Source: an uncultured Solirubrobacteraceae bacterium (GTDB lineage: Bacteria > Actinomycetota > Thermoleophilia > Solirubrobacterales > Solirubrobacteraceae). Taken from it: a stretch of DNA of 64,000 bases. Positions 21,366 through 49,519 of this stretch are shown here, piece after piece. Under the pieces are notes generated by a model that worked only from the letters and a program-made list of their open reading frames with translations, searched no databases and was not told where the DNA came from. Position 1 is the stretch's first letter; each line of letters opens with the position of its first letter. The stretch spans positions 14,672 to 78,671 of the forward strand of contig CAVPEY010000007.1 of assembly GCA_963703625.1 (NCBI GenBank). The letters are read 5' to 3'. Position numbers and translations under genes: made by a program.

Positions 21366-21953
21366 GTGATCACGGACGGCAAGGAAGCCACATTGAGCGA
21401 CATCGAGCGCGACGCGATCGCGCTGAGGAACCGAGGGCTCTCACATGAGCGCGCCACTCGGACGCTCGGGCTCGGACGCTCGCCTGTACGCATCGTGAAG
21501 GTTCCCGTCGTGGACGCCGCCGGGGCTCCGACGCGCCGCTGCGACGTGCGTCTGGTGCGCTCGGTGCGCGACCCGTCGGCCGATCACGCCTGGGACGCCG
21601 AGGGCAGCGAGATCACCGCCGTCGTGATCCTGCGCGACGTCACTCCCTCACGCGTGGCGTCCTTCGTGCAGGCGGCGACCGACGGCGACGGCTCGATCTC
21701 GCCGGGGCTCCTCGATCAGCTGCTCCCCGAGGGCGAGAGCACGCGCCCGAACCGCGGCGAGCCGCAGCTCAGCGAGCGCGAACACCAGGTGCTGCGGATG
21801 CTCGCCGAGGGCGAGAGCACGCGTGGCATCGCCGAGCGCCTGAACTACTCCGAGCGAACCGTCAAGAACATCGTGCGCGACCTGCTGGTCAAGCTCGACT
21901 GCAAGACCAGGGCCCACGCTGTCGCGCTGGCCGTGCGCCAAGGGGTGATCTGA
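21366..21953 (+). CDS. LuxR-type HTH transcriptional regulator
   Basis: C-terminal LSEREHQVLRMLAEGESTRGIAERLNYSERTVK...RAHAVALAVRQGVI. Start uncertain. Confidence 0.85.
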   Translation: MITDGKEATLSDIERDAIALRNRGLSHERATRTLGLGRSPVRIVKVPVVDAAGAPTRRCDVRLVRSVRDPSADHAWDAEGSEITAVVILRDVTPSRVASFVQAATDGDGSISPGLLDQLLPEGESTRPNRGEPQLSEREHQVLRMLAEGESTRGIAERLNYSERTVKNIVRDLLVKLDCKTRAHAVALAVRQGVI

Positions 21954-21974
21954 AATCGAATCGGCGCACGTCGC

Positions 21975-23375
21975 GTGAGCGGCAAGGTCGCGGTCATCGG
22001 CCTTGACTGCGCCGAGCCCAAGCTCGTCTTCGATCGCTGGCGCGAGGAGCTCCCGAACCTCAGCCGGCTGATGAGCGTCGGCACCTGGGGACCGCTCGCG
22101 AGCGTTGACCCGCCGATAACCGTGCCGGCGTGGAGCTGCATGATGACCGGGCGCGACCCCGGCGAGCTCGGTATCTACGGGTTTCGCAATCGCAGCGCCC
22201 ACGACTACCGCTCGATGTCGGTGGCCGACTCGAGCTCCGTTGCGATCGATCGTGTCTGGGATCGCCTCTCGCGAGCGGGCAAGCACGTGATCGTCCTCGG
22301 CGTGCCGCAGACCTCACCGCCGGTGCCGGTCAACGGCGAGCTCGTGTCGTGCTTCCTGACCGCGGACACGCGCAAGGACCCCTACACCCATCCTCCCGAG
22401 CTGCGCAGCGAGATCGAGTCGCTGGTCGGCTCCTACCGCGTCGACGTGCGCAACTTCCGCAGCGACGACCGCGACCGGATCCTCGCCGAGATCTATGAGA
22501 TGACCGAGCAGCGCTTCACCGTCGCCCGCCACCTGCTCGACACGCGGCCGTGGGACTTCTTCATGATGGTCGAGATCGGGCTCGACCGGATGCACCACGC
22601 CTTCTGGCGCTTCCTTGACACCCGGCATCCGCGCCACGAGCCCAACCACCGCTATGGCGAGGCGATTCGCAGCTACTACATCTACCTCGACGAAGAGATC
22701 GGCGAGCTGCTCGAGCGCTTCGACGAGGACACAACCGTGCTCGTCGTCTCCGATCACGGCGCGCGGCCGATGCAGGGCGCGATCTGCGTGAACGAATGGC
22801 TCGTTCAGGAGGGCTACCTGGTGCTCGAGGAGCCGCCGCAGGGGCCGACGCCGTTCAGCGAGGCGAAGGTCGACTGGAGCAGGACCCGCGCGTGGGGGGA
22901 GGGCGGCTACTACTGCCGGCTGTGCGTCAACCTCGCCGGCCGCGAGCCCGAGGGCACCGTCGCCGAGGAGGAGTACGAGGCGCTGCTCGACGAGCTCGCC
23001 GACCGCCTCGAGCGGCTACCCGGACCCGAGGGCGAGTCGATCGGCACCCGCGTCTTTCGCCCGCAGGAGCTGTGGCGCGAGCAGCGCGGGATCCCGCCCG
23101 ACCTGATCGTCTACTTCGGCGACCTCGGCTGGCGCAGCAACGGCAGCTTCGGCCACGGGCGCCACTGGACATACGACAACGACACCGGCCCCGACGACGC
23201 CAACCACGACCGCAACGGGCTGTGCATCATCGCCGGCCCCGGCGTGCCCGCGCAACGCCGCGAGGACCTCGTCATCTACGACGTCGCACCGACGATCCTC
23301 GCCCAGGCCGGCCTCGTGCCCGACGAGGAGCTGCGCGGCCGCGTGCTCGCGACCGCGCGGAGCCCCACCATCTAG
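21975..23375 (+). CDS. AlkP superfamily nucleotide pyrophosphatase/phosphodiesterase-like enzyme
   Basis: IGLDC, PPITVPAW (Thr nucleophile), DRMHH, SDHG, ANHD, DVAPT. No signal peptide. Confidence 0.92.
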   Translation: MSGKVAVIGLDCAEPKLVFDRWREELPNLSRLMSVGTWGPLASVDPPITVPAWSCMMTGRDPGELGIYGFRNRSAHDYRSMSVADSSSVAIDRVWDRLSRAGKHVIVLGVPQTSPPVPVNGELVSCFLTADTRKDPYTHPPELRSEIESLVGSYRVDVRNFRSDDRDRILAEIYEMTEQRFTVARHLLDTRPWDFFMMVEIGLDRMHHAFWRFLDTRHPRHEPNHRYGEAIRSYYIYLDEEIGELLERFDEDTTVLVVSDHGARPMQGAICVNEWLVQEGYLVLEEPPQGPTPFSEAKVDWSRTRAWGEGGYYCRLCVNLAGREPEGTVAEEEYEALLDELADRLERLPGPEGESIGTRVFRPQELWREQRGIPPDLIVYFGDLGWRSNGSFGHGRHWTYDNDTGPDDANHDRNGLCIIAGPGVPAQRREDLVIYDVAPTILAQAGLVPDEELRGRVLATARSPTI

Positions 23376-23391
23376 CCCACAGCGGCGCGGC

Positions 23392-25008
23392 TCAGCCGAC
23401 GTGCAGCGAGGTTGTGTGACCGCTGGCGTCGGTGACCCGCACGCTCTCAGCGAGAGTGCCCGTCCTGTGCTGCTTGGCCTTGCTCTCGAGCGTGCTGCTC
23501 TCGCGCAGCAGCGGCCCGCGGGCAACCAGCGACACAGCGGATGTGGCGTGCGTGAAGATGATCGCCAGCCTGCCGCTCGCGAGCCGAGCGCTCTTGACGG
23601 CGGCACCGGACAGCGACAGACCCTTGACGACGGCCGCCGCGACCAGCGCCTTGTGGCTGAAGCTCACGCCTGAGGGCAGCCCGAACGACAGCGACACGAG
23701 CCCGGCGCCGCTGCCGCCGTGCGCGTGGATGCTGAGCTTCGGCTTGCCGCTCGCGAGCCCGCTCCAGGATCCGGAGGCCTTCGGCTTGGCGCCCGCGGCC
23801 GAACAGCCGACGTTCGTCACCGGGCCCGTCACCTTCACGGCCGGGTTCCCGTTCTGAGGCACGAGCGTCGCCGCGATTGTGGCGTTCTGGCATTCGGTCG
23901 TGAACGCGGGCCCCGCCGGTACGCCCGTGAACGTGTAGGAGATCGAGTTCAGCGGGATGTCGGGGAAGCTCAGGAACGTGATCGTGTGTTCGGTGAGGTT
24001 CAGCGGCCCGACCACCGAGAACTGGTACGGCGGCGGGAAGGACATCGTCACCGCGCCGGTGACCTGCTGGCTCAGTGACCCCGAGTTGATCGAGCCCGCA
24101 AGCGTCAGCAGGCCGGCGTTCAGGGCCGTGGCCGGCAGGTCCGGAGAGCTGGCGTCGACGGTGCCGACGGTGCAGGTCGAGCCTTTGAAGCACGGCGCGA
24201 GCACTTTGTTGATCTTCACGCCGTTCGGGTTCCCGAACGCGATCGCGCCGGTCGCAGATTCGTCGGCGCCGCTCTGGGTGATCGTCACGACGACGTCCGC
24301 TCCGCCCTTGATCTTGGTGACCGTGGCGGCGACTTTCGGGGCGTAGGGCACTGTGTTGCAGCCCGTCACGACCAGGGGCGCGCTCGCCGATGCGGTGCTG
24401 TCCAATTCATAGGACAACGTCTGGATCGTCACCGCTCGGCTGGCGCTGCACGTCGTCGGCAGCCGCGGGCTCGCAAGCGTGAACTGCATTGCTTCGATCC
24501 CGATCGGGAAGCCGAGGAAGGACACCGTCCACGTCGCCGGGGAGGTGGGGGAGGGCGATACCGGGCCGGTGATCGTCGCGCCTCCCTGGATCACGAAGGC
24601 GATGCCGGCGAGGTTGGCGAGCGTCGGTGGCGCCACGAGATACAGCGTGACGGGAGTCGCTACGCCTTTGGTGCTGTTGATCGTGCCAGTCCCGAGCACA
24701 CACAGCGGGTTCGGCGCCGTCGCGGTGACGCACTCGCCGCCGTTCATGCCGAGGTTCAGCAGGAATCCCGGCGGGAAGGCGATCGTCAGATTTTTGACGG
24801 AGTCAACGCCCAGCCTGGGGTTGAAGTTGATGTTGAAGCCGGTGGCAGGACTGGTGCCCGCGGTCGTGCCGGCACCCTGTTCCAGTGTCAGCGTCGGCGT
24901 GAGCACGGCCTGTGCAAGTGCCGGGCAGATCGCAATCACGGCCGCTACCAGCAGCCCGGTCAGTGCAGTTCTGGCGAACATCAATTTATTCCTCCGTGTA
25001 TTAGCCAT
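23392..25008 (-). CDS. secreted/surface beta-rich protein
   Basis: Signal peptide ending AQA. Thr/Pro/Gly-rich, with two related 'P.G...N...C' domains and a basic C-terminal domain. Overlaps the GT stop by 8 nt. Confidence 0.8.
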   Translation of the reverse strand: MANTRRNKLMFARTALTGLLVAAVIAICPALAQAVLTPTLTLEQGAGTTAGTSPATGFNINFNPRLGVDSVKNLTIAFPPGFLLNLGMNGGECVTATAPNPLCVLGTGTINSTKGVATPVTLYLVAPPTLANLAGIAFVIQGGATITGPVSPSPTSPATWTVSFLGFPIGIEAMQFTLASPRLPTTCSASRAVTIQTLSYELDSTASASAPLVVTGCNTVPYAPKVAATVTKIKGGADVVVTITQSGADESATGAIAFGNPNGVKINKVLAPCFKGSTCTVGTVDASSPDLPATALNAGLLTLAGSINSGSLSQQVTGAVTMSFPPPYQFSVVGPLNLTEHTITFLSFPDIPLNSISYTFTGVPAGPAFTTECQNATIAATLVPQNGNPAVKVTGPVTNVGCSAAGAKPKASGSWSGLASGKPKLSIHAHGGSGAGLVSLSFGLPSGVSFSHKALVAAAVVKGLSLSGAAVKSARLASGRLAIIFTHATSAVSLVARGPLLRESSTLESKAKQHRTGTLAESVRVTDASGHTTSLHVG

Positions 25009-26248
25009 TGCTCAGTTCCAGGGCCGACGGCCCGGCGATCTGCTGCATGTGCTTCTCGAACACGCCGACGGCGCATTTGATGCCGTCTTCCGCGCGAATG
25101 CGCTCGCCGAGCGCGGCCGCGCGCTCACGGATCTTCACGTCTGTGACTGCAGCCGCGATCGCCTCGTGCAGGCGCTCGGGGGAGAGCTTGCGCCGGCGGA
25201 TCGGCGCCGGTCCGGCGCCCAGGGCGTGGATCGTCCGACCCCACGCGACCTGGTCGATCATGTGCGGCACGACGACCGACGGCACACCGGCCTTCAGCGC
25301 TGTCGCGGTCGTCCCGGCGCCGCCGTGGTGCACGACCGCGCTGCAACGCTCGAACAGCCAGTCGTGGCTGATCGCGCCGACCGTGTGCACGGTGTCGGGC
25401 AGCTCCGCCTTGCCGAAGCCCTGAGCGCCGCGAATCAGCACGCCGCGCTGGCCGGCTCGCCGCAGCGCCTCGACCGCGAGCTCGCTCATGCCCTGCGGAT
25501 CGGCGTCGATCATGCTGCCGAAGCCGACGCACACAGGCGGCGGTCCCGCCTCGAGGAACTGCGCGAGCTCCTGTGGCGGCTCGGGGTCGACGTCGTTCTG
25601 CAGAAACCAATAGCCGGTCACCTGCGTCGAGGGGCTCAGCGGCGCCGAGTCGGGCACGACCGCCGGGCTGTATGCGCGCAGCTCGAGCGTCTGGCGGGCG
25701 GCGAGCTGGCCCACAGGCTCGCGCCAGGAGAGCGGCGGCAGGCCGGCCGCGCGTCGGGCTGCACGGAGCCAACGGCGCATCGCCAGCCACGCCGTCTGAC
25801 GCACGGCCGGCGCCGCCGGGCTCTGCGCCATCCGCGGTGGCGGGCACAGACGTGCGCGAACGAGCTGCGCACCGGAATGCTCGGAGGCCTGCCAGCCGAG
25901 CAGCAGCGCGAGCTCGTTGGTAACGATCACCTCGGCTCCCTCGCACGCGCTGAGCGCGTCGGCGAGGCGCTGGCCGAGGACCGAGTGCGCGTCCTTGACA
26001 AGCGCCACCAGCGCGGGCGTCTGGTGCGATCCACGCTGCGCCGTGCGTCGGTCCGCGGCCGTCGCGCCGCGGCTGATCCGCCCCTCCGCGAGCGGCGCGA
26101 ACTCGAGGCCCGCGTCGGTCACCTGCCGCTCGAAACGGGGGAACGCGGCGACGCGAACATCGTTTCCGGCCGCCGCCAGACCGAGTCCGAAGCCGAGCAG
26201 CGGCTGGACGTCGCCGCGCGACCCCAGGCTCAGGAGCGTGATCCGCAT
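25001..26248 (-). CDS. GT1/GT28-fold glycosyltransferase (sterol-glucosyltransferase-like)
   Basis: GSRGDVQP, VGFGSM, HDWLF..CSAVVHHGGAGTT, DQ..WG. Confidence 0.93.
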   Translation of the reverse strand: MRITLLSLGSRGDVQPLLGFGLGLAAAGNDVRVAAFPRFERQVTDAGLEFAPLAEGRISRGATAADRRTAQRGSHQTPALVALVKDAHSVLGQRLADALSACEGAEVIVTNELALLLGWQASEHSGAQLVRARLCPPPRMAQSPAAPAVRQTAWLAMRRWLRAARRAAGLPPLSWREPVGQLAARQTLELRAYSPAVVPDSAPLSPSTQVTGYWFLQNDVDPEPPQELAQFLEAGPPPVCVGFGSMIDADPQGMSELAVEALRRAGQRGVLIRGAQGFGKAELPDTVHTVGAISHDWLFERCSAVVHHGGAGTTATALKAGVPSVVVPHMIDQVAWGRTIHALGAGPAPIRRRKLSPERLHEAIAAAVTDVKIRERAAALGERIRAEDGIKCAVGVFEKHMQQIAGPSALELSNG

Positions 26249-26261
26249 CGTGCGCCTCCCG

Positions 26262-28427
26262 TCACGGCTCTCCCACGACGCCCGCGTACCGGAGCGCTCG
26301 TTCGAGCCTCAGCGTCAGCGCGGACAGATCACCGTTGCCGTCGCTGCTCGCGCGCAGCCGTCGCAGGTCGCGCAGGGCCTGCGCCTTCTCACCGCGGGCC
26401 GCCGCGGCCTGGGCGGCGTCCAGCAGTCGCTGCGCCGGCGAGGACGAGCCGACCCGCGCGATGCTCGCGCGAGGAAACGCGGAGGACCCGAGCACGCCAC
26501 GCACCGAGCCGAACGTCGCCGCGGGCTCCGGCGTCGGCATCGTCTGCACGTTCGAGGGTTCGGACTTCTCGCCGGCTGCGTTCTCGGCGATCACCTCATA
26601 CACCCGATGGGCGCTGCTGTGAGCGACGAAGTACGCGCTGCTGGTCGTACCGATCGGTTCAAACTGACCGGGCACCGCGACGTTGACCGCCAGCGCGCCG
26701 GGAGTTTCGGGTTCGGTCAGGATCGGTTCAGCGCCTTCGTACTCGAATCCGCTCGCGAGCGTCGGCTGTGGCTTCAGGTACAGCGACAGGTTGACTTCGG
26801 AGGCGGCCAGGACCTCGTAGTGGCTCGCCGACGCCGAAGGGTTCCACGAGAGCAGCGTGCTCTTGCGCTTGCCCTTGCCCGTGGCCTGCGCGATCATCGC
26901 GCTCGGCGCCGAGACTTTGTGTGGACGGTCGATCAGCGACGAGCACGTCGATTCGCGGTCGTCGAGGATCATCGTCCCCTGCGCCTGGTTGGCGCTGCCG
27001 ATGTACAGTTCTTCGCCGCCGGGCCCGCTCGTTTCCAGCGTTCGCGCGCCGAAGTCGTATTCGCCGTCGCCGAAGGCGTCGCGCGTCACCGGGAACCAAT
27101 CTTCGCCGTCGCACGTCGACCACAGCTGGTAGCCGGCGGAGCCTGCGAGCAGGTCCCCGAGCCAGCCTTTGCCTTTGTAGCCTTTGACGAGCTCGGCCCA
27201 GCTGTTGGTGCCGACGTACAGCCCGCCGCCGAAGTCGGCCATCCGCCAGAAGTGGGCGTTGAAGAGGCTGTCGAAGCCGTCGTCGAGGCCACTCGTCGGG
27301 TATGCGATCTGGCCGTTGGGCAGCTTGCGCGGGTTGCCGACGACGAGCGTCCACTGCCCGTCGGGTGCGATCCGGATCATCTCCGATTTCGGCAGCGTGT
27401 TCTGATACCAGCCGCTCGCGCCGACGTACAGCCGGTCGCGGTAGACGTGCATCGACACGACAGAGGTGATTTCCGCGCCGCTGCCGGCGCCTCCGGTGAT
27501 GATCGGCACGAACGGCCGGTCCTCGCCGCTGGCCTCCCACACGGAGTAGCCGGAGGTCGCGTTGCCGCAACCGAGATACAGGTCGCCGTGGAACGTGACG
27601 GCTTCGAAGATGTCGAGGTTCGCCGGGCTCACCTGGATCAGCCGGGGATGCTGCGACGACGGGTTGGTGACCTCGAACAGCGATCCGTCGCCGGTCAGGT
27701 CGGGCGTCGCGGTCACGAACAGGTGGTGCTTCCACACGACCATCGCGCGGTAGCCCATCGGGTGGACCTCGCCGCCCGGGTAGTGGACGGTCACGGCTGG
27801 CAGTTTCAGCGCTTCCCAATGGATGCCGTCGTAGCTGCGCAGGATCCGCGGGGGGTGGGTGCGCAGCAGCGACGGCAGGTACTCGTCGGGGCTGACGCCG
27901 GCCGCGTACAGGGCTTCCCGGCCGTCGCGTTCCTTGAAGGTGACCATCGAGCGGTAGGCGATGTCGCTCGCCACGTGCAGGTTCGATTCGACGGGGTTGC
28001 GCAGCGTGGGAGAGCGGTAGACGCGCTTCCAGATACCGGTCTCGGGCGTGTACTGCCAGATCTCGGCGCGCAGCCTCAGGTCGTACGGGTTCGCCGGACA
28101 GCGGACGTTCAGGGACGGGTTGATCGTGTACTTCTGCTCCAGGGGCACGAAGAACTGGGTCGTCTCGTTTTCGACGCACAGCACGTCGCGTCCGGTGCCG
28201 ACGTACAGCTGGCCCTTGAACCAGCCCATCGACCACGCGTAGGAGTTGTCGCGTTCGCCAAACCCGTTCTGGGCGATCACGCCGTGTCCTGATTCGTCGA
28301 CGAAGCTGGTGCCGGGCCCGGATCCGTCGGCCAAGCTGGTGCCGGCCGTTGCATCCGCAAACGCCAGCAGCGCCGCAAGTACCACCAGCACGCACGGCAT
28401 CGTCCTTGCCCCTCTAGAAAGACTCAC
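26262..28427 (-). CDS. secreted beta-propeller protein with a C-terminal FN3-like domain
   Basis: Signal peptide. Repeated blades SM..FKGQLYVGT / SM.VYRDRLYVGA / RM.DFGGGLYVGT, then LLSW...YEV.AEN..GE.SEPSN. GTGA coupling with the upstream gene. Confidence 0.8.
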   Translation of the reverse strand: MSLSRGARTMPCVLVVLAALLAFADATAGTSLADGSGPGTSFVDESGHGVIAQNGFGERDNSYAWSMGWFKGQLYVGTGRDVLCVENETTQFFVPLEQKYTINPSLNVRCPANPYDLRLRAEIWQYTPETGIWKRVYRSPTLRNPVESNLHVASDIAYRSMVTFKERDGREALYAAGVSPDEYLPSLLRTHPPRILRSYDGIHWEALKLPAVTVHYPGGEVHPMGYRAMVVWKHHLFVTATPDLTGDGSLFEVTNPSSQHPRLIQVSPANLDIFEAVTFHGDLYLGCGNATSGYSVWEASGEDRPFVPIITGGAGSGAEITSVVSMHVYRDRLYVGASGWYQNTLPKSEMIRIAPDGQWTLVVGNPRKLPNGQIAYPTSGLDDGFDSLFNAHFWRMADFGGGLYVGTNSWAELVKGYKGKGWLGDLLAGSAGYQLWSTCDGEDWFPVTRDAFGDGEYDFGARTLETSGPGGEELYIGSANQAQGTMILDDRESTCSSLIDRPHKVSAPSAMIAQATGKGKRKSTLLSWNPSASASHYEVLAASEVNLSLYLKPQPTLASGFEYEGAEPILTEPETPGALAVNVAVPGQFEPIGTTSSAYFVAHSSAHRVYEVIAENAAGEKSEPSNVQTMPTPEPAATFGSVRGVLGSSAFPRASIARVGSSSPAQRLLDAAQAAAARGEKAQALRDLRRLRASSDGNGDLSALTLRLERALRYAGVVGEP

Positions 28428-29347
28428 GACATGTTCCTTTCGATTGCTTCCCTAGCGCCCGGTGTCCCGGTTCCGTTGGCTTGCGCGCCCGCCGCTGCGG
28501 CGGCGCGTCCATCCACTGCGGATGCCATCTCCGACGGCTTGTTGCTGCACCCCCGCATCGCGATGTGGTAAGCGAAGCGCCCCGTGGGCAGCAGGTCGTC
28601 GAAGATGTAGGCGATCAGGTGCAGCGGCATCAGCACGCGTGCCGCGCGGGGCGCGTGCAGCGGCACCCGCACGGCGAGGATCGCGAGCGTCACCAGCTCC
28701 TGCAGGCCGACGCCGGTACGCGCCATCCGCTCTACCGTGAACTGCGGTTCGAGCAGGCCGGCGAGCTCCTCGGTGGCGAAATGACGGTGTTCCTCCTCGT
28801 CCGTTCCGACGACGCCCTCGAGCTCGGGCCACGATGGTCGCCTCCGGCGCAGCGCCGCGTACACGTTGACGGCGTCCAGATGCCTCGTCGGGCCGCGATG
28901 CGGCACGCTGACGATGATCGTGCCCCCCGGACGCAGCACGCGGTGCGCCTCTGCGAGCACGCGCTCGGGCTCGGCGTCGTGCTCGATCACGTCGAGCAGC
29001 AGCACCGCGTCGGCGCAGCTGTCCGCGAGCGGCAGCTCGCCGCCGTCCGCGTCGACCATGGGCAGCCACGGGAAGTGTCGCTGCGCCCGCTCCACCAGCT
29101 CGGGATCGCGCTCGACGCCGACGATCAGTCGCGGCTCGCGTGCACGCGCGACGATCGCGACCGAGCCATAGCCGCCGGCGCAGCCGATGTCGAGCACGCG
29201 CAGCGCGTCGCTCGGCAACCATCGCCGCGCGCGGCCCCAGCGCCCGACGTAGGAGAGCAGGCGCGGGCGCCTCGGCGCCTCCCCAGGCCTCGCCGCGGCA
29301 AACGGGTCGCGTCGGCCGGCGAGCGAGGGTGACGCGAGCGCGCTCAT
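28424..29347 (-). CDS. class I SAM-dependent methyltransferase-fold protein
   Basis: VLDIGCAGG, LPLADSCADAV, DVIEH, RVLRPGG. ATGA coupling. Confidence 0.9.
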   Translation of the reverse strand: MSALASPSLAGRRDPFAAARPGEAPRRPRLLSYVGRWGRARRWLPSDALRVLDIGCAGGYGSVAIVARAREPRLIVGVERDPELVERAQRHFPWLPMVDADGGELPLADSCADAVLLLDVIEHDAEPERVLAEAHRVLRPGGTIIVSVPHRGPTRHLDAVNVYAALRRRRPSWPELEGVVGTDEEEHRHFATEELAGLLEPQFTVERMARTGVGLQELVTLAILAVRVPLHAPRAARVLMPLHLIAYIFDDLLPTGRFAYHIAMRGCSNKPSEMASAVDGRAAAAAGAQANGTGTPGAREAIERNMS

Positions 29348-31127: not shown

Positions 31128-31146
31128 CAGTACGTCTCCTCGCGGC

Positions 31147-32769: not shown

Positions 32770-32772
32770 GCG

Positions 32773-33072
32773 TCAGACCTCCAGTGGACTCGGTTGCCGG
32801 TGCTCGCACACGAACATCGCGAGCTCCGAGACGCTGAGGTCGCGCTCGTCGATCGGGCGCTGGCCGATTTCCTCGAAGAACTGGGGGAACGGCAGGCGGC
32901 CGTAGCGCTGCTGGACCATCGTCGAAAGCACGACGATCTCGAGCGACTCGAGACCGAGGTCGGCGACGAACCGCGTCTGCGGCCCGATCTCGCCCGTGTG
33001 CTCCCAGTCGCCGCTGGCCTCGTTCAAGAGCGCGAGGATTCCCTGCATCACCTGTGGGTCGAGTGTCGTCAT
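32773..33072 (-). CDS. discrete acyl carrier protein
   Basis: 99 aa, acidic, with DLGLESLEIV phosphopantetheine site. ATGA coupling to the PKS. Confidence 0.88.
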   Translation of the reverse strand: MTTLDPQVMQGILALLNEASGDWEHTGEIGPQTRFVADLGLESLEIVVLSTMVQQRYGRLPFPQFFEEIGQRPIDERDLSVSELAMFVCEHRQPSPLEV

Positions 33073-41000: not shown

Positions 41001-44000
41001 GCGGGCGCCTCGGCGGGTGCGGCCGGCTGGACCGGCGCCACCTGAGCGGCCGCCGGCGCAGGGGCTGGTGCGGGCGCGGCCGGGAGCGCGGCTGCAGCCG
41101 GGCGCACCGGTGCGAGCGCTGACCGCTGCAGTCCCACGCCCGGCAGCGTCGCCGCTCCGCGCGCGGCGCCGAGGTAGCCCAGCATCACGCTGCTCTGTGC
41201 CTCGAGGAACTGCTGCATCACCTGCTGGTGGCGGAGCATCACCTCAGCGACGCGGTCACCGGCCGCGGGCGCCGCCGAGATCTGCCCGCCCTGCAGCGCG
41301 CGCGTGCCGATCTCTGCGCCCGGCGGCGAACGATCGGGATGGCCGTTGCTCGTCTCGAACTGCTCCGGCAGGAAGGCGGGGACGACCGGGCCCCCGCCGT
41401 TGGTGCTCGTGTTGGTCACGGGTCTGTGCTCCTCTTGTTCGGCGACATGGATCGGCGCCGCCGGTGCACGGGTCGTGCCGGCGGGCCATGCACGGCCGCC
41501 GTCGACGAGCCAGGTCGCGCCCGGCTCCTCGGCGGTGTGGCCATTGCCGCGCGGATCGAGACGCGCGGCGGGACGTCCTTCGAAGAGGCGCTCGGTCTGC
41601 ACCGGCAGCCCCTCGGCGGCGAGCGCCGCCAGGCAGTGCAGCAGCGACAGCAGGCCGGAACGGCCCGGCCGGTCCATCGGGACGGCGAGGTGCTCGCGCT
41701 CGCCGAGGATCTGCGGGACAAGGCCGGCGAGCACCGAGCGTGGCCCGACCTCGACGAAGACGCGGGCGCCGTCGCGGTACATCGCGTCGATCTCGCGCAC
41801 GAACTCCACGGGGCGGATCAGGTGCTCGGACAGGACCTGCGCGATCGCCGCGGTCTCCTGCTCGTGCGCCTCGCCCGTCGTGTTGGAATACACCGGGACG
41901 CGCGGGACGGCGAGGCTCGTGCGCTCGAGCAGCTGCGCGAAGCGCTGCTGTGCGCCGGCGACGTGGGGCGAGTGAAACGCGCACGCGACGGGCAGCATCC
42001 GCGCCCCGACGCCGCGCTCGCGGCACCACTCGACCGCGGCCTCGACGTGCTCCTGCGGTCCGGACAGCACCGTCTGGCGCGGCGAGTTGAGGTTCGCGGC
42101 GACGACGCCGCCGCCCTCGAGCAGCGGCGCCAGCGCGTCGGGTGGCGCCTCGACGGCCGCCATCGCGCCGGCCTCGACCGCGCTGGCCTGCTTCATCAAG
42201 CGTCCCCGCGCCTCGGAGACGCGTAGCAGCTGCTCGACGTCGATGCCACCGGCGGCGGCGAGCGCGACGAACTCGCCGTAGCTGTGCCCCGCCGTCAGCT
42301 CGGGGACGATCCCCAGCGTCTCGAGCACACGCAGATAGGCGAGCTCTGTCGCCCCGAGCGCCGCCTGCGCCACGTGCGTGTCGGTCAGCTCGGACTGGCG
42401 AGCGCGCTGCTCCTCGGGCGTGAACGACGGCGGCGGGAAGACGTAGCCGCTGAGCGGCTGCTCGTAGCAGTCCGCCAGCACCCGGTCTGCGAGCTCGAAC
42501 TGCTCGCGCGCCTCGGGGAAGGCGATCGCGAGCTCGCGCCCCATGTTCACCATCTGCGAGCCCTGGCCGGGGAACAGGAACGCAACCCGACCCTCTGCGG
42601 CCAACGGCCGCTCGGACCAGTGGATGCCGCTGGGATCGTGCACGCGTTCCTCGGCGCCGACGAGCAGCTCCCGCGTCCGGCCGAGCTTCCCGCGCAGATC
42701 CTCCAAGGACTCGGCGACCAGCGCGAGCGTCGGGCTGGTGGCCTCGCGCGCGTGAAACTCGAGTGCGAGGCGGTGGGCGAGCGCGTCCAGCCGCGGAGGC
42801 TCGGCGGCAGCGAGCTCGACTTCGAGCTGCTCGAGCGCGCGAAGCACCTCGGCGCGGCTGCCGCGCCACAGCAGCAGCTCGCCCGGCCAGCGCGGCATCG
42901 CGGTCTCGGGGTCGTCGCGGTAGGCGCCCGTGTACTCCTCGAGCACGATGTGGAAGTCGGTGCCGCCGAAGCCGAACGCGCTGACCCCGGCCCGGCGCGG
43001 ATGTGCCGCACCGCCTGTCAGCCACGGGCGCGCTTCGCTGTTGACGTAGAACGGGCTCTCCGGGAACGACGCCTTCGGGTTGGGTTCCTCGACGCCGATC
43101 GTCGGTGGCAGCACGCGGTGGTGCAGCGCCAGCGCGGCCTTGACGATGCCCGCGACGCCGGCGGTCGCCTTCGTGTGTCCGATCATCGACTTGACCGACC
43201 CCACCGCGCACCACTGGCGGCTGTCGGAGTGCTCGGCGAAGACGGTGCTGAGCGCCTTGATCTCGGCACCGTCGCCGGCGACGGTGCCCGTGCCGTGCGC
43301 CTCCACCAGACCGACGGTCGCGGGCGAGAAGCGCGCCTGCGCGTACGCCCGTCGCAGCGCGCGCATCTGGCCCTCGGGCCGCGGCGCCGTGAGGCTCCTG
43401 TCGCGGCCGTCGCTCGCGGCGCCGACGCCGCGGATCACGGCGTAGATGCGGTCGCCGTCGCGCTCGGCGTCCGCCAGGCGCTTGAGCACGACCGTCGCGA
43501 ACCCCTCGCTGATCGCGATCCCGTCGGCGCTCGCGTCGAACGGACGGCAGCGTCCGGTCGGCGACAGCGCGTGTGTCTTGGCGAAGCACAGGTACGCGAA
43601 CGGGTTCTGAATCGCGTCGACGCCGCCCGCGAGCACCATGTCGCTGGTACCGACCTGCAGCTCTCGGGCGCCGAGGCCGATCGCGCTCAGCGACGAGGCG
43701 CAGGCGGCGTCGACGGTGTAGTTGGTCCCGCCGAAGTCGAGGCGGTTGGCGATGCGCCCCGCGGCGACGTTCATCAAGAGACCGGCGAAGCTGTCCTCGG
43801 TCCACTCGGGCAGCGCGTCAAAGAGCTGTTCCTGCAGCTGCGGGTGCGCGTCGCCCAGCAGCGACGGGATCGCCGAGCGCACGGTGTAGCCGACGGACGT
43901 GTCGGCGCCGCCGCCGCCCGCGCCCAGGATCACCGAGGTGCGTTCCCGGTCGAACGGACGCGTCGCATATCCCGCGTCGCGCAGCGCGGCCTGCGCGCAC

Positions 44001-46312
44001 AGCAGCGCGAGCAGCTGGAACGGCTCGATCGAGGCGAGCGACTTCGGCGGTAGCCCGAGCGTCATCGGGTCGAGCGCCACCGGGTCGATGAAGCCGCCCC
44101 AGCGCGAGTACACCTTGTCGCGCGCGGCCGGGTCGGGGTCATACATCCGCCGCCAGTCCCAGCGCTCCGCGGGGACCTCGCCGATCGCGTCGACCCTGTC
44201 GATGATGTTGGCCCAGAAGCTCGCCACGTCGGGCGCGCTCGGCAGGATGCAGCCGAGGCCGACGATCGCGACGTCCGCAGGCGGCGGCGCCGGCGGCTCT
44301 GGGCCCGCCTGCGGCGCCGCCAGCTCCTCGAGCAGCTCGCTGCTCGCGTGCGAGACTTCGCTGTGCAGCTCGGCGATGCTCGTCACGCTGTCGCGCAGCG
44401 CGGTGACCTGGCCGATCATGTACATGCCGCGCTGCCACTGCTCGCAGGCGTCGACGTCGACGAGCTCGGAGTCGGCGCGGTCGACGCCCTTCGACGCGAC
44501 CCGCAGGCGTCCGATGTTGAGCTGCTCGAGGCGGCCGCGCAGCTCCTCGGCGTCGATCCCCTCCGAGCGCAGGCTGCGCCGCTCGGCCTCGAACTGCTCG
44601 ACGAACGGTGAGGGCAGGCAGCGCGTGGCGTGGCCGGGCCCGCTCTCGAGCAGAGCGGTGTCGGCGGCGGCGATCGCGGCCTCCTGGAACAGCGGCGTGA
44701 TCGCGCCGCATTCGGTGGCCTCGCGCGTGAACAGGTAGCCGGTGCCCATCAGCGCACCGATCTGCGCGCCGCGCGCGCTCGCTGCTGCCGCCGCGGCGGC
44801 AGCCATCGCCGCCGAGCGGGCGTCGTGGATGCCGCCCGCGAGCAGCACCTGGCAGTCGGAGGCGTCGTTCGGAAGCTCCTCGAGCAGGACGCGGAACATC
44901 GTGTCCCAGAGCACGAAGCTCGTGCGGGGGCCGACGTGGCCGCCGCACTCGCGCCCCTCGAACACGAAGCGGCGCGCGCCGTCCGCGAGGTACAGCTTCA
45001 ACAGCCCCGGCGAGGGGACGTGCAGGTAGGTCTCGATGCCGTCGGCTTCGAGCTCGCGCGCCTGGTCGGGACGCCCGCCGGCGATCAGCGCGAACGGCGG
45101 GCGATGCTCGCGCACGACCTCGAGCTGCTCAGCGCGCAGCTCGGCGGGCACGAAGCCGAGCAGCCCGACGCCCCACGAGCGCTCCCCGAGGAGCTTCGCC
45201 GTCTGCTCGAGCAGCGCGCTGGCTTCGCCGGCGCGCATCAGAGCCAGCGCGAGGAAGGGCAGGCCGCCGCCTGCGGCGACCGCCGCGGCGAACTCCGCGC
45301 GGTCGCTGACGCGCGTCATCGGACCCTGCACGAGCGGGTAGCGGGTGCGGTGTGCCTGTGCGACGCCGGCGCCCTCAGCGAGCGGGTTGCCGTCCGCGAG
45401 CGTGTCGCAGGCGCGCGCGATCGCGGAGCCGAGACCGTCGATGATGCCGGCGACGGTCTCGAAGCTGCGCGCCAGCTCGGCGGCGAAGGCGGCGTCCTGC
45501 CCGAGCGGGAGCACGGCCGTGTCCACGCCCGCTCCGGCGACGTGGGCCCTGACGCCCGCTCGCCAAGTGCCACGGGCGTCGGCGCTCGCCAGCAGCTCGT
45601 CCTCGACGGCGCGCAGCTGCTCGAGGCTGTGCATGCCCGGCCGGCTGTAGGCGCGGAACGGCGCGCCCAGCTCCGCGCCGAGCGTCACGGTCTCGCTGCC
45701 GTCGGTTCCGGCGAGCGTCGCCCGCAGGTTGTCCGGGAGCGGCGACTCGCGCGTCAGCAGCAGCTGCGCGTCGAGCACCGCGCCTGCGGCGCCGGCGACG
45801 TATGCCGCGGCGACGGTGTGCCGGCCGATCCCGCCGTGTATGAAGACGGGGACGCCGAGCGTCCCGAGCAGTCGCTGGGAGAGCACGAACGAGCCCTCCT
45901 CGCCGATCCAGCCGCCCGCCTCGTGCCCCTTGGCGATCACGGCGTCGGCGCCGGCGTCCTGCGCCGCGACGGCCTCGCCGAGCGCCGTGGCGACTACATA
46001 CGCCTGCAGGCCCGCGCCGTGTACCAGCTCGACGAGCGCCGGCAGCTCCTCCGCCGGCGTGTTCGCGAGCAGGATCGTGTCGAGACCGTCCGGTTGCGCG
46101 GTGAGCACGGCGGCGAGCGTCTCGGCGCCATCGAGCAGCACGCCGCAGCGACCCCGCCCGAGCTCGCACAGGCGCCGAAGCTGAGCGAGGCCGGCATCGA
46201 GGTCGATCGCGAACTCGAGGTTGACCACGCCGAGGGCACCCGCACGACTGCCGGCGATCGGAACAGTGGCGTCCGGCGAGCCGGACGGGCACAACACGAC
46301 GAATTGAAACAA
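38072..46312 (-). CDS. iterative type I PKS/FAS, PfaA-like: two FabK/NMO-type ER barrels-KS-AT-ACP-KR-DH
   Basis: KGHEAGGW and EGRECGGH barrels. KS: DAACASS, EAHGTGT, GHTK. AT: GQGSQ, GHSYG, AFHS. ACP: LGIDSIKRVEI. KR: TGGARGI, YAAAS. DH: DHRIDGRPVLP, DSALQ. TTG start. Confidence 0.95.
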   Translation of the reverse strand: MFQFVVLCPSGSPDATVPIAGSRAGALGVVNLEFAIDLDAGLAQLRRLCELGRGRCGVLLDGAETLAAVLTAQPDGLDTILLANTPAEELPALVELVHGAGLQAYVVATALGEAVAAQDAGADAVIAKGHEAGGWIGEEGSFVLSQRLLGTLGVPVFIHGGIGRHTVAAAYVAGAAGAVLDAQLLLTRESPLPDNLRATLAGTDGSETVTLGAELGAPFRAYSRPGMHSLEQLRAVEDELLASADARGTWRAGVRAHVAGAGVDTAVLPLGQDAAFAAELARSFETVAGIIDGLGSAIARACDTLADGNPLAEGAGVAQAHRTRYPLVQGPMTRVSDRAEFAAAVAAGGGLPFLALALMRAGEASALLEQTAKLLGERSWGVGLLGFVPAELRAEQLEVVREHRPPFALIAGGRPDQARELEADGIETYLHVPSPGLLKLYLADGARRFVFEGRECGGHVGPRTSFVLWDTMFRVLLEELPNDASDCQVLLAGGIHDARSAAMAAAAAAAASARGAQIGALMGTGYLFTREATECGAITPLFQEAAIAAADTALLESGPGHATRCLPSPFVEQFEAERRSLRSEGIDAEELRGRLEQLNIGRLRVASKGVDRADSELVDVDACEQWQRGMYMIGQVTALRDSVTSIAELHSEVSHASSELLEELAAPQAGPEPPAPPPADVAIVGLGCILPSAPDVASFWANIIDRVDAIGEVPAERWDWRRMYDPDPAARDKVYSRWGGFIDPVALDPMTLGLPPKSLASIEPFQLLALLCAQAALRDAGYATRPFDRERTSVILGAGGGGADTSVGYTVRSAIPSLLGDAHPQLQEQLFDALPEWTEDSFAGLLMNVAAGRIANRLDFGGTNYTVDAACASSLSAIGLGARELQVGTSDMVLAGGVDAIQNPFAYLCFAKTHALSPTGRCRPFDASADGIAISEGFATVVLKRLADAERDGDRIYAVIRGVGAASDGRDRSLTAPRPEGQMRALRRAYAQARFSPATVGLVEAHGTGTVAGDGAEIKALSTVFAEHSDSRQWCAVGSVKSMIGHTKATAGVAGIVKAALALHHRVLPPTIGVEEPNPKASFPESPFYVNSEARPWLTGGAAHPRRAGVSAFGFGGTDFHIVLEEYTGAYRDDPETAMPRWPGELLLWRGSRAEVLRALEQLEVELAAAEPPRLDALAHRLALEFHAREATSPTLALVAESLEDLRGKLGRTRELLVGAEERVHDPSGIHWSERPLAAEGRVAFLFPGQGSQMVNMGRELAIAFPEAREQFELADRVLADCYEQPLSGYVFPPPSFTPEEQRARQSELTDTHVAQAALGATELAYLRVLETLGIVPELTAGHSYGEFVALAAAGGIDVEQLLRVSEARGRLMKQASAVEAGAMAAVEAPPDALAPLLEGGGVVAANLNSPRQTVLSGPQEHVEAAVEWCRERGVGARMLPVACAFHSPHVAGAQQRFAQLLERTSLAVPRVPVYSNTTGEAHEQETAAIAQVLSEHLIRPVEFVREIDAMYRDGARVFVEVGPRSVLAGLVPQILGEREHLAVPMDRPGRSGLLSLLHCLAALAAEGLPVQTERLFEGRPAARLDPRGNGHTAEEPGATWLVDGGRAWPAGTTRAPAAPIHVAEQEEHRPVTNTSTNGGGPVVPAFLPEQFETSNGHPDRSPPGAEIGTRALQGGQISAAPAAGDRVAEVMLRHQQVMQQFLEAQSSVMLGYLGAARGAATLPGVGLQRSALAPVRPAAAALPAAPAPAPAPAAAQVAPVQPAAPAEAPAPAPAVEPTPAPAPVAATSATPQAQAAGVATAMTRAQIQERLLAVVSERTGYPAEMLGLDADLEGDLGIDSIKRVEIAGTLTQGLGLEDRSAIDIEELTASRTLTAVIDILEAALGGSGVTATAAPPGEQAGAQRPFEEGPAEEERIGRFVVQAQSAPAIIDGTGLTGPGAVVIVDDEQGIGAELEQALAARGETVIRLAHEEQPRDADEACALAARTHADGGVKALVHLAALAEPQPEYGALTTLLALAQALREQLEAAASAGGAVLLGATGLGGAFGVDGDAPLGAAPQGAIHGFLKSAAQEWPAVRVKSVDLQAMPATAAAAHLLAELSAADGLVEVGYRDDERVQLGVVPAPLAERRFGQTLDADSVLLVTGGARGITAHVALTLAERRRHTFVLVGRTPLEAESEQTAGLSELAELRAAMIELRKREHRELKPALVEQDCRRTLAAREVRENLERLRATGAGVEYLVCDVSDSDAFGALIDSVYARHGRIDGVVHGAGVIEDSLIRDKQRSSLERVLATKAGAARTLAERLRPQGLRFLVLFSSVSGRFGNRGQADYAAASEVLAKLAHELDRRWPARVVSVDWGPWRAAGMVSPWLEAEFTRRGVALIGLDHGARMLEQELSRGRKGEAEVVIGAATGLAAVQGADGAQGAASTTAAEPEQAAGLALLAGAKEVVPGPGAGGPSVQALYTFELARDLYLGDHRIDGRPVLPFAVAMELMAELAATAAPGRPVAGLSTIRLLAGLALEHDRPASVRIDATPQDDAGEIEVTIKPVAEGRPHYRARVQLGELLAPRDLPGLHDPSKPGIAARPAPLPELAPFPLPVADAYRDLLFHGPLFQGIVAIDGMDARGASALLRPSQPAQCVAGAEGLHWLLDPVLVDSALQMQVLWARLQWEVTLLPAEIGAYVKLGEPAAQEPVRHELRIRPASNLPLCHADHWFYGADGRLLALLHDVVGVGTQALNRLAGAKA

Positions 46313-46422
46313 TGTGGGCCCTTCGTGTAGGTGTCTCCATCCGGTCGGAGAAGCATCCGAGACCGCGGACGTTGCGGACTTTGGCCCACGCAGACAGAGT
46401 GGTCAAGCAGCGACAGGCAATG

Positions 46423-46455
46423 TTGCACGAAGGTGCAAATCGCATTGACCATGCG
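46423..46455. promoter_or_regulatory. candidate operator(s) in the divergent PKS/carboxyltransferase promoter region
   Basis: TTGCAC-gaag-GTGCAA (46423-46438) and CGCAT-tgacc-ATGCG (46441-46455). Confidence 0.3.
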
Positions 46456-46586
46456 GTGTGAGCGACCCTAACCTGCACCCGGCTACCCCGTGTTGGGACG
46501 CCGGACAGCCTCGCTGGAAACGCGTCGACAGCGCAGGGGAGCAGCGTCGGCTTACACGTTTCCAACGCGCCCGGGGGGCCTTTCTC

Positions 46587-48134
46587 TTGTCCGTCCTGTC
46601 GCACTCTTCGCCTCCTTCGCAACTGGATCCCCCGCACTCGCGCGAACGCCTCGAGTGGCTGTGCGACCCGCACAGCCTCGAGCCGCTCGAGCCGGCTTCG
46701 ATGCCAGACGACACCGAGGTCGGGGTGCATGCGGCATGGGGTCGCGTCGCCGGGCGCCCGATCCTCTGCTACGCCCAGGACGCCTCGATCGCCGCCGGAT
46801 CGGTGGGCGTGCCCGAGGCCGAGGTGATCGTCCGCGCGCTGCGTCACAGCCGTCAGATCGGGGTTCCGCTCGTCGGCTTCATGGAGTCTGCGGGCGCCCG
46901 CCTGCAGGAGGGCGCCGCCGCGCTGGGCGGATTCGGACGGATCTTCTTCGAGAACGTGGCGCTCTCCGGTCGGGCGCCCCAGATCTCGGTGATCACCGGT
47001 GTCTCGGCCGGCGGCGGCTGCTATTCGCCCGCGCTGACCGACTTCGTCGTGATGACCGACAGGGCCTCGATGTTCCTGACCGGTCCGCGGATCGTCAAGC
47101 GGGCGCTCGGCGAGGACGTCACGACCTCCGCGCTCGGCGGTACGCGCGTGCACGCCCGCAACGGCGTCTGCGACTTCGTCGCAGACGACGATCGCAGTGC
47201 GATCGGGCTGTTGCGCGAGCTGCTCGGCTACCTGCCCCAGAACGGGTCCGAGCCACCGCCGCCGATCGCGGCCGAATCCCCGACCGGCGAGGATCCGGCG
47301 GGCGTGCTGCCGGCGCGCAGCCGCAACTACTACGACGTCCGCGAGCTGATTGGACGGCTGGTGGATGGCGGTCGCTTCCGCGAGGTCTCCGAGCGCTGGG
47401 CACGCAACATGGTCGTCGGCTTCGCGCGCATGGAAGGGCACACCGTCGCGATCATCGCCAACCAGGCGCGCCACCGCGGCGGCGTGATCGACGTCGCGGC
47501 CTCGCAGAAGGGCAGGAAGTTCGTACGCACCTGCGATGCCTTCGGGATCCCGATGCTCGTGCTGGTCGACACGCCGGGCTTCATGCCCGGCAGCCGCGAG
47601 GAGGCGGCCGGAGTCATCAGCCACGGCGCCGAACTGGTGCGTGCGTTCGCCGCCGCCAGCGCGCCGCGGGTGACCGTGATCGTGCGCAAGGCTTTCGGCG
47701 GCGCGTTCATCACGATGAACTCCAAGGATCTCGGCGCCGATGCGGCGTTCTGCTGGCCGGACGCCGAGATCGGGATCATGAGCCCGGAGGCCGCCGTCGA
47801 GATCATCCACGGCCGCCGGCTGCGCCGGATTCGCGGCGCCGACGTGCGCGAACGGCTCGCCCGCCGCTACGCCGAGGACAGCCTCACCGCGCAGGCCGCG
47901 GTCGCCTGCGGCGCGGTCGACGCCGTCATCCAGCCGGCCCAGACACGCGAGCACGTGCTGCGTGCGCTGCGCCAGGAGCGGCGCGCCGCCGAGGGCAACA
48001 CCGATATCGTCAACGCGCCGAGCACGGGACCCGTACGAACGGCGGGCAGAGCGTCCCGGCAGCCGCCGCGGCCGGCAGATGCGACCAACAACCTCTACCG
48101 TCTCAAAACCGCCCCGGAGGGAGCACAGACATGA
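46587..48134 (+). CDS. acyl-CoA carboxylase carboxyltransferase subunit (PccB/AccD-like)
   Basis: ESAGARLQEG, SAGGGCYSPALTDF, MFLTGP, LVDTPGFMPG, RKAFGGA. Probable TTG start at 46587. Confidence 0.92.
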   Translation: MSVLSHSSPPSQLDPPHSRERLEWLCDPHSLEPLEPASMPDDTEVGVHAAWGRVAGRPILCYAQDASIAAGSVGVPEAEVIVRALRHSRQIGVPLVGFMESAGARLQEGAAALGGFGRIFFENVALSGRAPQISVITGVSAGGGCYSPALTDFVVMTDRASMFLTGPRIVKRALGEDVTTSALGGTRVHARNGVCDFVADDDRSAIGLLRELLGYLPQNGSEPPPPIAAESPTGEDPAGVLPARSRNYYDVRELIGRLVDGGRFREVSERWARNMVVGFARMEGHTVAIIANQARHRGGVIDVAASQKGRKFVRTCDAFGIPMLVLVDTPGFMPGSREEAAGVISHGAELVRAFAAASAPRVTVIVRKAFGGAFITMNSKDLGADAAFCWPDAEIGIMSPEAAVEIIHGRRLRRIRGADVRERLARRYAEDSLTAQAAVACGAVDAVIQPAQTREHVLRALRQERRAAEGNTDIVNAPSTGPVRTAGRASRQPPRPADATNNLYRLKTAPEGAQT

Positions 48135-48502
48135 AGCTTGTCCCCCGCACAACTACGCTCGCACTGATCCTCCTCGCCACGTCCGCCACGCTGGCGGGCG
48201 CTTCGAGCAGCCTGTCGGGCGAATACGTGACGACCGTCAAGACCGCCGGGAGCCTCAACGGCACCTACCGCATCGCCTTCAGCCCCGGCCACTTCATCCT
48301 GCACGCGCCCTACGACATCACCGGCCACGGGACCTACTCGATCTCCGGCTCGAAGATCACGATGCACGGCCCGTCTGCGACCTGCACGGCGTCGGGCACC
48401 TACGAATTCAAGATCTCCGGCAGCTACCTGTCGTTCAAGAAGATCCACGACCCATGCCAGCGCTCGGAGATCCTGACGCCGCACGCGCTGAAGCGAACCT
48501 GA
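48131..48502 (+). CDS. small secreted beta-barrel-like protein with two Cys
   Basis: GGAGG RBS, ATGA overlap, signal peptide, C...GTY.F......L.F....DPC..R. Confidence 0.8.
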   Translation: MKLVPRTTTLALILLATSATLAGASSSLSGEYVTTVKTAGSLNGTYRIAFSPGHFILHAPYDITGHGTYSISGSKITMHGPSATCTASGTYEFKISGSYLSFKKIHDPCQRSEILTPHALKRT

Positions 48503-49399: not shown

Positions 49400-49519
49400 C
49401 GCGCAATTCTCCCACAAGCTCGAAAGGCCGGCTCCTTGGTCGAAATGTCCAAGCAGGGCGCGATCAGATTGGCCAGCGGGCCCTGTCGGGCTCGCGACGA
49501 CGGGCTCATACTTGCAGCC

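Follow-up and report, generated by a model that had tools for sequence, protein, structure and literature searches.

We analysed a window of 64,000 nucleotides from contig CAVPEY010000007.1 (positions 14,672 to 78,671 of the forward strand) of assembly GCA_963703625.1, a 70%-complete metagenome-assembled genome (MAG) of an uncultured Solirubrobacteraceae bacterium, designated G000 here, and within it a polyketide synthase (PKS) gene cluster for which a working island span of 21366-48134 with 13 genes was adopted. Ten of these genes make up the operon proper (23392-46312, 22.9 kb); by the open reading frame (ORF) listing and inspection of start codons they run co-directionally on the minus strand from 46312 down to 23392, and encode in this order two synthases (PKS1 and PKS2), a free-standing acyl carrier protein (ACP), a nucleotide pyrophosphatase/phosphodiesterase-family enzyme (NPP), an alpha/beta hydrolase, a short-chain dehydrogenase/reductase (SDR), a methyltransferase, a secreted 721-aa protein, a GT1-family glycosyltransferase and a last secreted protein. 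Every junction is an overlap or a gap of at most 19 nt: TGATG with a 1-nt overlap for PKS1/PKS2, ATGA for PKS2/ACP, a 3-nt gap for ACP/NPP (these two genes overlap in other phyla), a 19-nt gap with a GAGGAG site upstream for NPP/hydrolase, GTGATG for hydrolase/SDR, ATGA for SDR/methyltransferase, GTGA for methyltransferase/721-aa protein, a 13-nt gap for 721-aa protein/GT1 and, for GT1 and the last gene, either an 8-nt overlap (ATG at 25008) or a 19-nt gap (ATG at 24981, with a GGAGGA site). From this spacing alone we infer that the ten genes are co-transcribed. A first-pass annotation of the window had described a tight minus-strand operon of ~23 kb, and this description stands, since all ten genes and both flanks are present and the junctions can be read as given above; the order of genes and domains proposed at that time was likewise recovered by Pfam and NCBIfam scans.

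PKS1 (2746 aa; 38072-46312, minus strand) has, according to these scans, the organization ER'-ER-KS-AT-ACP-KR-DH, i.e., two enoyl reductase domains (ER', 45440-46276; ER, 44327-45349), a ketosynthase (KS, 43091-44275), an acyltransferase (AT, 41711-42580), an ACP (40676-40885), a ketoreductase (KR, 39224-39892) and a dehydratase (DH, 38135-38917). It scores 1167.9 bits against the TIGR02813 PfaA model (cut-off, 1010.1), in three stretches, in keeping with the Pfa/Ars-like two-protein iterative synthase of the first-pass annotation. The two N-terminal domains are FabK/NMO-like and each matches solved FabK structures; the first carries GGW in place of the GGH motif found in the second, and the label ER' is therefore a fair one. 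There is a single ACP, DLGIDSIKRVEI, with the PP-binding domain at residues 1810-1879 and the PfaA-type motif LGIDSIKRVEI, which was found in the sequence together with all other motifs quoted earlier. PKS2 (1667 aa; 33069-38072, minus strand) is composed of KS (36825-38045), AT (35340-36326), DH (33909-34778) and an Sfp-type phosphopantetheinyl transferase (PPTase, 33183-33674) with the motifs RGAP and VSLTH, a fusion which agrees with the proposal that the cluster activates its own carriers; no ACP, KR or thioesterase (TE) domain was detected in it by the domain scan. Its DH is a PS-DH domain (E 1.9e-13 when scanned alone), with an insertion after the DH histidine. Its KS retains the Cys and both His residues (DAACASS, EAHGTGT and KSMIGH), DAACASS being carried by the KS domains of both proteins, while the AT motifs differ between the two (GQGSQ/GHSYG/AFHS in PKS1 vs GEGAQ/GHSSG/AVHT in PKS2).

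Four small genes follow PKS2 on the same strand. In the free ACP (99 aa; 32773-33072; PF00550 match), Ser43 of the DLGxESL motif does not vary among 22 orthologues drawn from several phyla; the protein also has a DWEY motif specific to the family. The NPP (540 aa; 31147-32769; PF01663, 1.1e-36) belongs to the alkaline phosphatase (AlkP) superfamily of phosphodiesterases, and its metal-ligand Asp (GLDG), Thr nucleophile (LTPPAWT) and SDHG Asp-His pair are invariant in 34 aligned orthologues. No signal peptide was found in it; it is thus predicted to be cytoplasmic, and a role as a secreted phosphatase was rejected. The predicted structure (pLDDT 90) has the NPP fold, and the nearest Foldseek matches (E 5e-18) were the Xanthomonas Xac NPP, ENPP6 and the phosphonoacetate hydrolase PhnA, solved members with which it shares ~15% sequence identity and over which it has ~150 extra residues. 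A predicted complex of NPP with the ACP scored 0.70, one unrelated control having reached 0.60. The alpha/beta serine hydrolase (282 aa; 30279-31127; PF00561 match) shows in the orthologue alignment a GHSYG elbow, whose Ser is replaced by Cys in one orthologue, and a C-terminal His that is conserved, and would accordingly act as an esterase, thioesterase or acyltransferase; as the nucleophile is Ser and not Asp, the options of an epoxide hydrolase and of a dehalogenase were rejected. The last of the four is a classical SDR (311 aa; 29344-30279; PF00106, 4.8e-48), for which the nearest named model is 3-ketodihydrosphingosine reductase (159 bits, under its cut-off).

This cassette is conserved far beyond the host. 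An exhaustive search of representative proteins with the DH-PPTase tail of PKS2 returned 812 clusters at E <=1e-30, and in all seven of the PKS2-homologue contexts sampled (34-74% identity in the DH-PPTase part) an ACP of ~100 aa, an NPP of ~535 aa and the hydrolase lay directly downstream. Furthermore, a scan of species-representative genomes with the NPP-orthologue alignment confirmed at least 528 loci. We searched the best 80 by tblastn with the window proteins; as these loci were chosen via NPP, the counts describe the companions of NPP and not the reverse, and loci are called distant where NPP identity is below 65%. Near NPP we found the ACP in 60/62 loci, the hydrolase in 61/64, the PKS2 DH-PPTase tail in 55/62, the SDR in 55/64, the 721-aa protein in 48/64 (28 of the 44 distant ones) and a window-like GT1 in 37/64. 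By comparison, the methyltransferase (14/64), the last secreted protein (14/64, none of the 44 distant loci, Solirubrobacteraceae-type loci only) and the second NPP-family enzyme of the island, NPP2 (12/64; distant, 5/44), are lineage-specific, and so the earlier inclusion of the last secreted protein, the methyltransferase and the LuxR-NPP2 pair among the core parts could not be upheld. The first-pass annotation had also held that its system would fall apart if the tailoring and secreted genes were not conserved beside homologous PKSs; conservation was found for the 721-aa protein, the SDR and a GT1.

The adjacency of PKS2, ACP, NPP and hydrolase, usually with the SDR and often with the 721-aa protein, extends over at least 8 phyla. 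Hosts among the best 80 loci included Solirubrobacteraceae, Solirubrobacterales and Thermoleophilaceae MAGs and Micromonospora sonchi (Actinomycetota), Chloroflexia, Thermomicrobiales, Anaerolineae and Caldilineae (Chloroflexota), Isosphaeraceae and Paludisphaera soli, Bryobacteraceae and other Acidobacteriota, Desulfobacterota, Methylococcaceae and Nevskia soli (Gammaproteobacteria) and a Stellaceae MAG. M. sonchi, P. soli and N. soli are cultured carriers of the locus, and Baekduia soli has a 71%-identical NPP (known here from NPP alone). In the planctomycete P. soli (L060:15854-21611), where tailoring is by a GT1 followed by exporter genes, the gene for the 721-aa protein precedes one for a 276-aa uncharacterised protein, after which come transporter genes of the HlyD and MacB types. 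A Bryobacteraceae MAG (L104:1014-17608) holds a minimal cassette without the big synthases, in which an arylsulfotransferase, an NPP2-like enzyme, an ATP-sulfurylase/APS-kinase for 3'-phosphoadenosine-5'-phosphosulfate (PAPS) synthesis, a stand-alone KS, an ACP and a PPTase-ACP fusion are found along with NPP, the hydrolase, an MFS transporter, the SDR, a PHP phosphoesterase and an FAD oxidoreductase/halogenase-like protein.

Four more genes complete the operon. The class I SAM-dependent methyltransferase (307 aa; 28424-29347, minus strand; PF08241 match) shows weak matches to fatty-acid and phthiotriol O-methyltransferases. The 721-aa protein (26262-28427, minus strand) has a signal-peptide-like start and no Pfam match, and its model (pTM 0.82) comprises a beta-propeller, an Ig/FN3-like sandwich and a C-terminal helical bundle; the fold search returned generic propeller matches only (Kelch, GH/PL, integrin alpha), and the atlas searches weak Kelch/FN3 leads only. 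The GT1 (415 aa; 25001-26248, minus strand; PF06722, PF03033 and PF00201) is of the macrolide/Rgt type. The last secreted protein (529/538 aa; 23392-25008, minus strand) also starts like a signal peptide; it has no Pfam match, and its atlas clusters, which are actinobacterial, are without any family. Among relatives the number of GT1 genes ranges from one to three (up to three in Solirubrobacteraceae-like contigs), and other MAGs carry sulfotransferases, CMAS-type methyltransferases, B12-radical-SAM enzymes and CoA-transferases as tailoring genes, with PAPS genes in related clusters as well. This swapping of GT1 for sulfotransferase/PAPS genes between lineages points to a hydroxylated lipid core that is decorated afterwards.

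Outside the operon, a gene for a carboxyltransferase of the acyl-CoA carboxylase beta-subunit type (46458-48134, plus strand; PF01039, E 1.4e-129) diverges from PKS1, and a LuxR-type regulator (21366-21953, plus strand; GerE match) and NPP2 (21975-23375, plus strand; PF01663 match; 32% identical to NPP) converge on the operon end. The bracketing described in the first-pass annotation was thus correct in kind, except that the end coordinate 48502 had been taken from ORF 46490-48502, which has no family match, the true carboxyltransferase ORF being 46458-48134. The carboxyltransferase scores 432 bits against the mmdA/PccB-type subfamily, under the cut-off, and represents an additional paralogue, confined to the genomes that bear the cluster, where a single biotin carboxylase is shared; a co-directional carboxyltransferase occurs in the distant locus L023. 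The idea of an own extender supply is in keeping with this cluster-specific gene, which is kept with the cluster, at the same position and with 75% identity, in the congener G015. As to its partner, two sites of G000 (G000:C4:561383-562747 and G000:C6:172635-173918) show lesions. The accC-like biotin carboxylase, the only one in this genome, was matched in several frame-shifted pieces, and one carboxyltransferase contains an in-frame TGA. These may be either assembly indels, the MAG being 70% complete, or real pseudogenes, and they bear on whether the island carboxyltransferase has a working partner. Directly past the carboxyltransferase lies a TIGR00027/LCM-type SAM-dependent methyltransferase gene (48530-49624, minus strand), which probably belongs outside the island because it is not beside the island in G015.

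Taken together, we favour, on balance, the reading that the cluster encodes a self-contained iterative type I fatty-acid/polyketide (secondary-lipid) synthase of the Ars/Type-M lineage, accompanied by genes for processing and decoration, and that it makes a glycosylated long chain. PKS1 and PKS2 would iteratively elongate malonyl units with full KR-DH-ER reduction on the single ACP of PKS1, giving a long, mostly saturated acyl chain, the carriers being primed by the fused PPTase and the carboxylated extender being supplied by the extra carboxyltransferase with the housekeeping biotin carboxylase. Since there is no TE domain, the chain may, by analogy with its transfer from ArsA/ArsD to ArsB/ArsC, be passed to the ACP/NPP/serine-hydrolase/SDR cassette, in which the acyl group would be released or transferred by the hydrolase, and keto reduction by the SDR would provide the hydroxyl for later decoration. 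The NPP might cleave a phosphodiester or phosphate, either in the phosphopantetheine arm of its dedicated ACP or in a phosphorylated precursor held on that ACP, the latter as an analogue of FkbH; these two options rank highest for this step. The GT1 would then add a sugar and the methyltransferase O-methylate the product, and the glycolipid would go to the envelope, where the secreted propeller protein could bind or process it.

Several observations weigh against this reading. To our knowledge, no lipid pathway pairs a cytoplasmic NPP with a carrier protein, and the role of NPP is left unexplained. No thioester reductase is encoded in the cluster, so that the route to heterocyst-type alcohol glycolipids is not available as such. 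The sole GT1 of the window is the copy downstream of the propeller gene, and the SDR-adjacent GT1 of most distant relatives is not in the window; sugar attachment could therefore differ here. A contribution of the island to bulk fatty acids is possible, given that its KS domains are the only FabF-type KS of the host. The two active KS domains, together with the atypical AT of PKS2, would fit a condensase role too. Finally, the product and the chain length are predictions from the gene content, and expression as one unit is a prediction from gene spacing.

The condensase role just mentioned would be Pks13-like, with the KS of PKS2 joining the PKS1 chain to a carboxylated second acyl chain to yield a mycolic-like glycosylated acid, and we hold it to be rather improbable. 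The carboxyltransferase would carboxylate a long acyl-CoA, its loading onto the free ACP would fall to the AT of PKS2, and a CmrA-like reduction of the beta-keto group by the SDR would give an alpha-branched beta-hydroxy acid that is then glycosylated. Of the parts for such a pathway, a free ACP, an SDR and a cluster-specific carboxyltransferase are there, both KS domains keep Cys-His-His and the AT of PKS2 has GHSSG/AVHT and not GHSYG/AFHS. Nevertheless, the island is without a FadD32-like acyl-AMP ligase, PKS2 is without a TE and without N- or C-terminal ACPs, and the matches to the Pks13 model, at 350-402 bits (cut-off, 2100), reflect generic KS-AT similarity; moreover, NPP-less Type-M-like relatives possess the same PKS2 with no free ACP or SDR, and the NPP would be left unexplained.

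The comparison of gene neighbourhoods indicates that NPP is core machinery and the invariant partner of the free ACP, not a lineage-specific head-group decoration. The same NPP is present in both sugar-type and sulfate-type variants, which argues against a variable head-group enzyme, and the earlier assignment of NPP to decoration did not survive this comparison. The first-pass annotation had further proposed an anionic, phospho- or sulfo-, head group, and it is improbable, in our judgement, that the NPP enzymes act as transferases which install a phosphate-containing or sulfate group to give a phospho- or sulfo-glycolipid. The invariance of NPP with its intact catalytic residues, the second NPP travelling with the island, and the sulfotransferases, PAPS synthesis genes and NPP2-like genes of related clusters could all be taken in its favour. 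However, the window contains no sulfotransferase, PAPS or kinase gene, so the proposal was not borne out; NPP itself is the same whether sugar-type or sulfate-type decoration accompanies it, and NPP2 is found in only 5/44 distant loci. The AlkP-type head-group transferases EptA and LtaS are membrane-anchored, extracytoplasmic enzymes of the sulfatase family, unlike the soluble NPP, which has no signal peptide.

A more far-reaching proposal, which we consider doubtful, is that NPP and the free ACP, with the hydrolase and the SDR, form an undescribed carrier-protein module that makes a polar head joined to a very long chain. The substrate of the phosphodiesterase would be either a species bound to the carrier or a small phosphorylated precursor, in the manner of FkbH-type glyceryl-ACP loading or of a release that cleaves the phosphopantetheine arm; a KS would join the polar unit to the very long chain, and reduction by the SDR would yield a polyol head. 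A head-group module able to work without the big synthases would be consistent with the minimal variant seen in Bryobacteraceae. If this were true, nitrogen-free sphingoid-like or diol-type glycolipids and sulfolipids would be expected in many phyla. Long-chain diol lipids are known from Chloroflexota, some MAGs of which carry the cassette, and the module is perhaps a route to them. Whatever its product, the family is common and occurs in phyla of soil, sediment and water, and no described lipid pathway accounts for the pairing of a cytoplasmic NPP with a carrier protein in its core; as cultured carriers exist, both the product and the NPP step are directly testable.

Pfa-like synthases with known products make polyunsaturated fatty acids (PUFAs), heterocyst glycolipids, Azotobacter phenolic lipids and zeamine chains. 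With the Pfa systems the window shares the score of PKS1 over the TIGR02813 cut-off, the FabK/PfaD-type ER and the PfaA-type ACP motif; it differs from them in having a single ACP vs the tandem 4-6 of Pfa Types A/B, in lacking a chain length factor (CLF), both KS being active, and a tandem FabA-type DH/isomerase (its dehydratases are of the PS-DH type only), and in the PPTase motif VSLTH, which is not the P1b (F/S)NxSH. PUFA production was therefore rejected on account of the missing CLF and FabA-type DH and the single ACP. The Hgl system (Type F, Nostocales) is similar in that the very long chain built by its Pfa-like synthase receives a sugar and ends up in the envelope, and the HlyD/MacB genes of the Paludisphaera relative, and of that relative only, resemble the DevBCA exporter. 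However, the multiple ACPs, the KS-CLF(-AT) protein and the reductive release to an alcohol of Hgl are all absent from the window, which also has no DevBCA exporter, and Hgl is without an NPP.

By description, the closer likeness is to Ars (Type P), the synthase of the Azotobacter vinelandii alkylresorcinol cluster. It is iterative, consists of two proteins with one ACP and without a TE, and passes its long saturated chain to partner enzymes encoded alongside; the ArsA/ArsD domain order was reportedly set out by Miyanaga in 2008. The VSLTH of the window PPTase corresponds to the P1b' motif hShxH. In place of the type III PKS (ArsB/ArsC), the window has the ACP-NPP-hydrolase-SDR set, the GT1 and the secreted propeller protein; no chalcone/stilbene-synthase match was obtained among the 13 island genes, and a phenolic lipid product was rejected for want of a type III PKS. 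In the classification of PPTase motifs, Types M-T have hShxH (P1b') and the PUFA Types A/B have P1b (F/S)NxSH (PMC3098273). The single ACP, the two active KS domains, the PS-DH dehydratases and the VSLTH PPTase thus place the synthase in the Type M-T branch with Ars.

Within this branch, Type M clusters are those of Actinosynnema, Frankia, Renibacterium and Streptomyces avermitilis (Shulse & Allen 2011; PMC3098273), and a 2026 survey still lists the Renibacterium cluster as uncharacterised, likening it to a fused pfaDA plus pfaBC-PPTase (PMC13291983). The window resembles them in the ER fused ahead of KS-AT-ACP-KR(-DH) and in the second protein, a KS-AT-DH with a PPTase at its end. In a 400-genome Actinomycetota sample, distant PKS2-like genes were found in 4 large genomes. 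Two of these, G636 and G646, carry PKS1-like (46% identity) and PKS2-like (29-39%) genes followed by a hydrolase that is a distant homologue of the window hydrolase; neither the free ACP and NPP nor the SDR and propeller protein gave a match in these two. Such relatives, which are not confirmed as the published Type M species, thus differ from the window in the absence of the ACP-NPP pair, and the window would represent a sister family defined by that pair. No product of this ACP-NPP cluster family was found in the literature, where only a handful of secondary lipids are known (PMC13291983). The previous statement that no characterised product is known in Thermoleophilia was therefore right, yet understated, because the family is an orphan in all phyla examined.

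The occurrence of the cluster among close relatives is sporadic. An NPP orthologue was present in 2/36 congeners, in none of 300 genomes sampled from the class and in none of the 400 sampled from Actinomycetota, and no NPP relative was found in the plasmid collection. In G015 the gene order from the carboxyltransferase through NPP2-LuxR is syntenic with the window and neither window flank is nearby, and LuxR and NPP2 also accompany the cluster in the closest MAGs. The presence of the whole set in a different genomic context argues that it moves as a unit, and we infer that 21366-48134 is an accessory, horizontally mobile gene island. The flank DNA gave scattered matches of ~71-77% identity in 40 congeners; in G035 the amidase flank lies ~2 kb from a piece of the right flank, which is a hint only. 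As a separate observation, NPP-family paralogues of ~570 aa with ~30% identity form tandem arrays of three or four genes unrelated to any PKS in small genomes of another family of the class (e.g., G155:C20:795-5228 and G083:C8:319764-324611).

The host background deserves attention in its own right. In G000 and G015 the only FabF-type KS and FabD-type AT domains are the two KS and two AT domains of the cluster, and in the closed congener genomes G005 and G350 no PF00109 KS, no FabD, no FabH above cut-off and no FabZ was found, while acpP and DegV/FakB are kept in all four genomes. The acpP locus (L107:4660-6697, equal to G000:C3:193659-195696) has the order plsX-acpP-rnc-smc in G000, with none of the usual fab genes between plsX and rnc. 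G025, with five FabF-like genes, is the exception. It seems, then, that the genus is without canonical condensing and loading enzymes of type II fatty acid synthesis (FAS II), and this free-living soil lineage may depend on external fatty acids or on another, uncharacterised synthase.

It could be supposed that the island is itself the fatty-acid synthase of the host, acquired by a lineage that had lost FAS II, given that the cluster supplies the only FabF-/FabD-type domains in G000 and G015 and unites every FAS activity with its own PPTase and carboxyltransferase; we regard this as very unlikely. The closed, island-less G005 and G350 are also without KS or FabD and yet keep plsX, acpP and DegV/FakB, which suggests that the genus obtains its bulk acyl chains otherwise; since cluster-less congeners share the gap, the island is probably not the primary synthase. 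Moreover, it is present in 2/36 congeners only, and in other phyla this core is accompanied by dedicated genes for glycosyl or sulfate tailoring and by exporters. For the secondary-lipid synthase proposed above, the FAS II gap would explain the self-sufficiency of the island, and the host is thereby a natural case for testing what a cell gains from a type I lipid synthase that stands alone. In the same genus, modular PKS KS domains occur by the dozen in G002, G023 and G025, in ORFs that reach 13,000 aa, and other congeners have none, so that biosynthetic content is very uneven within one GTDB genus.

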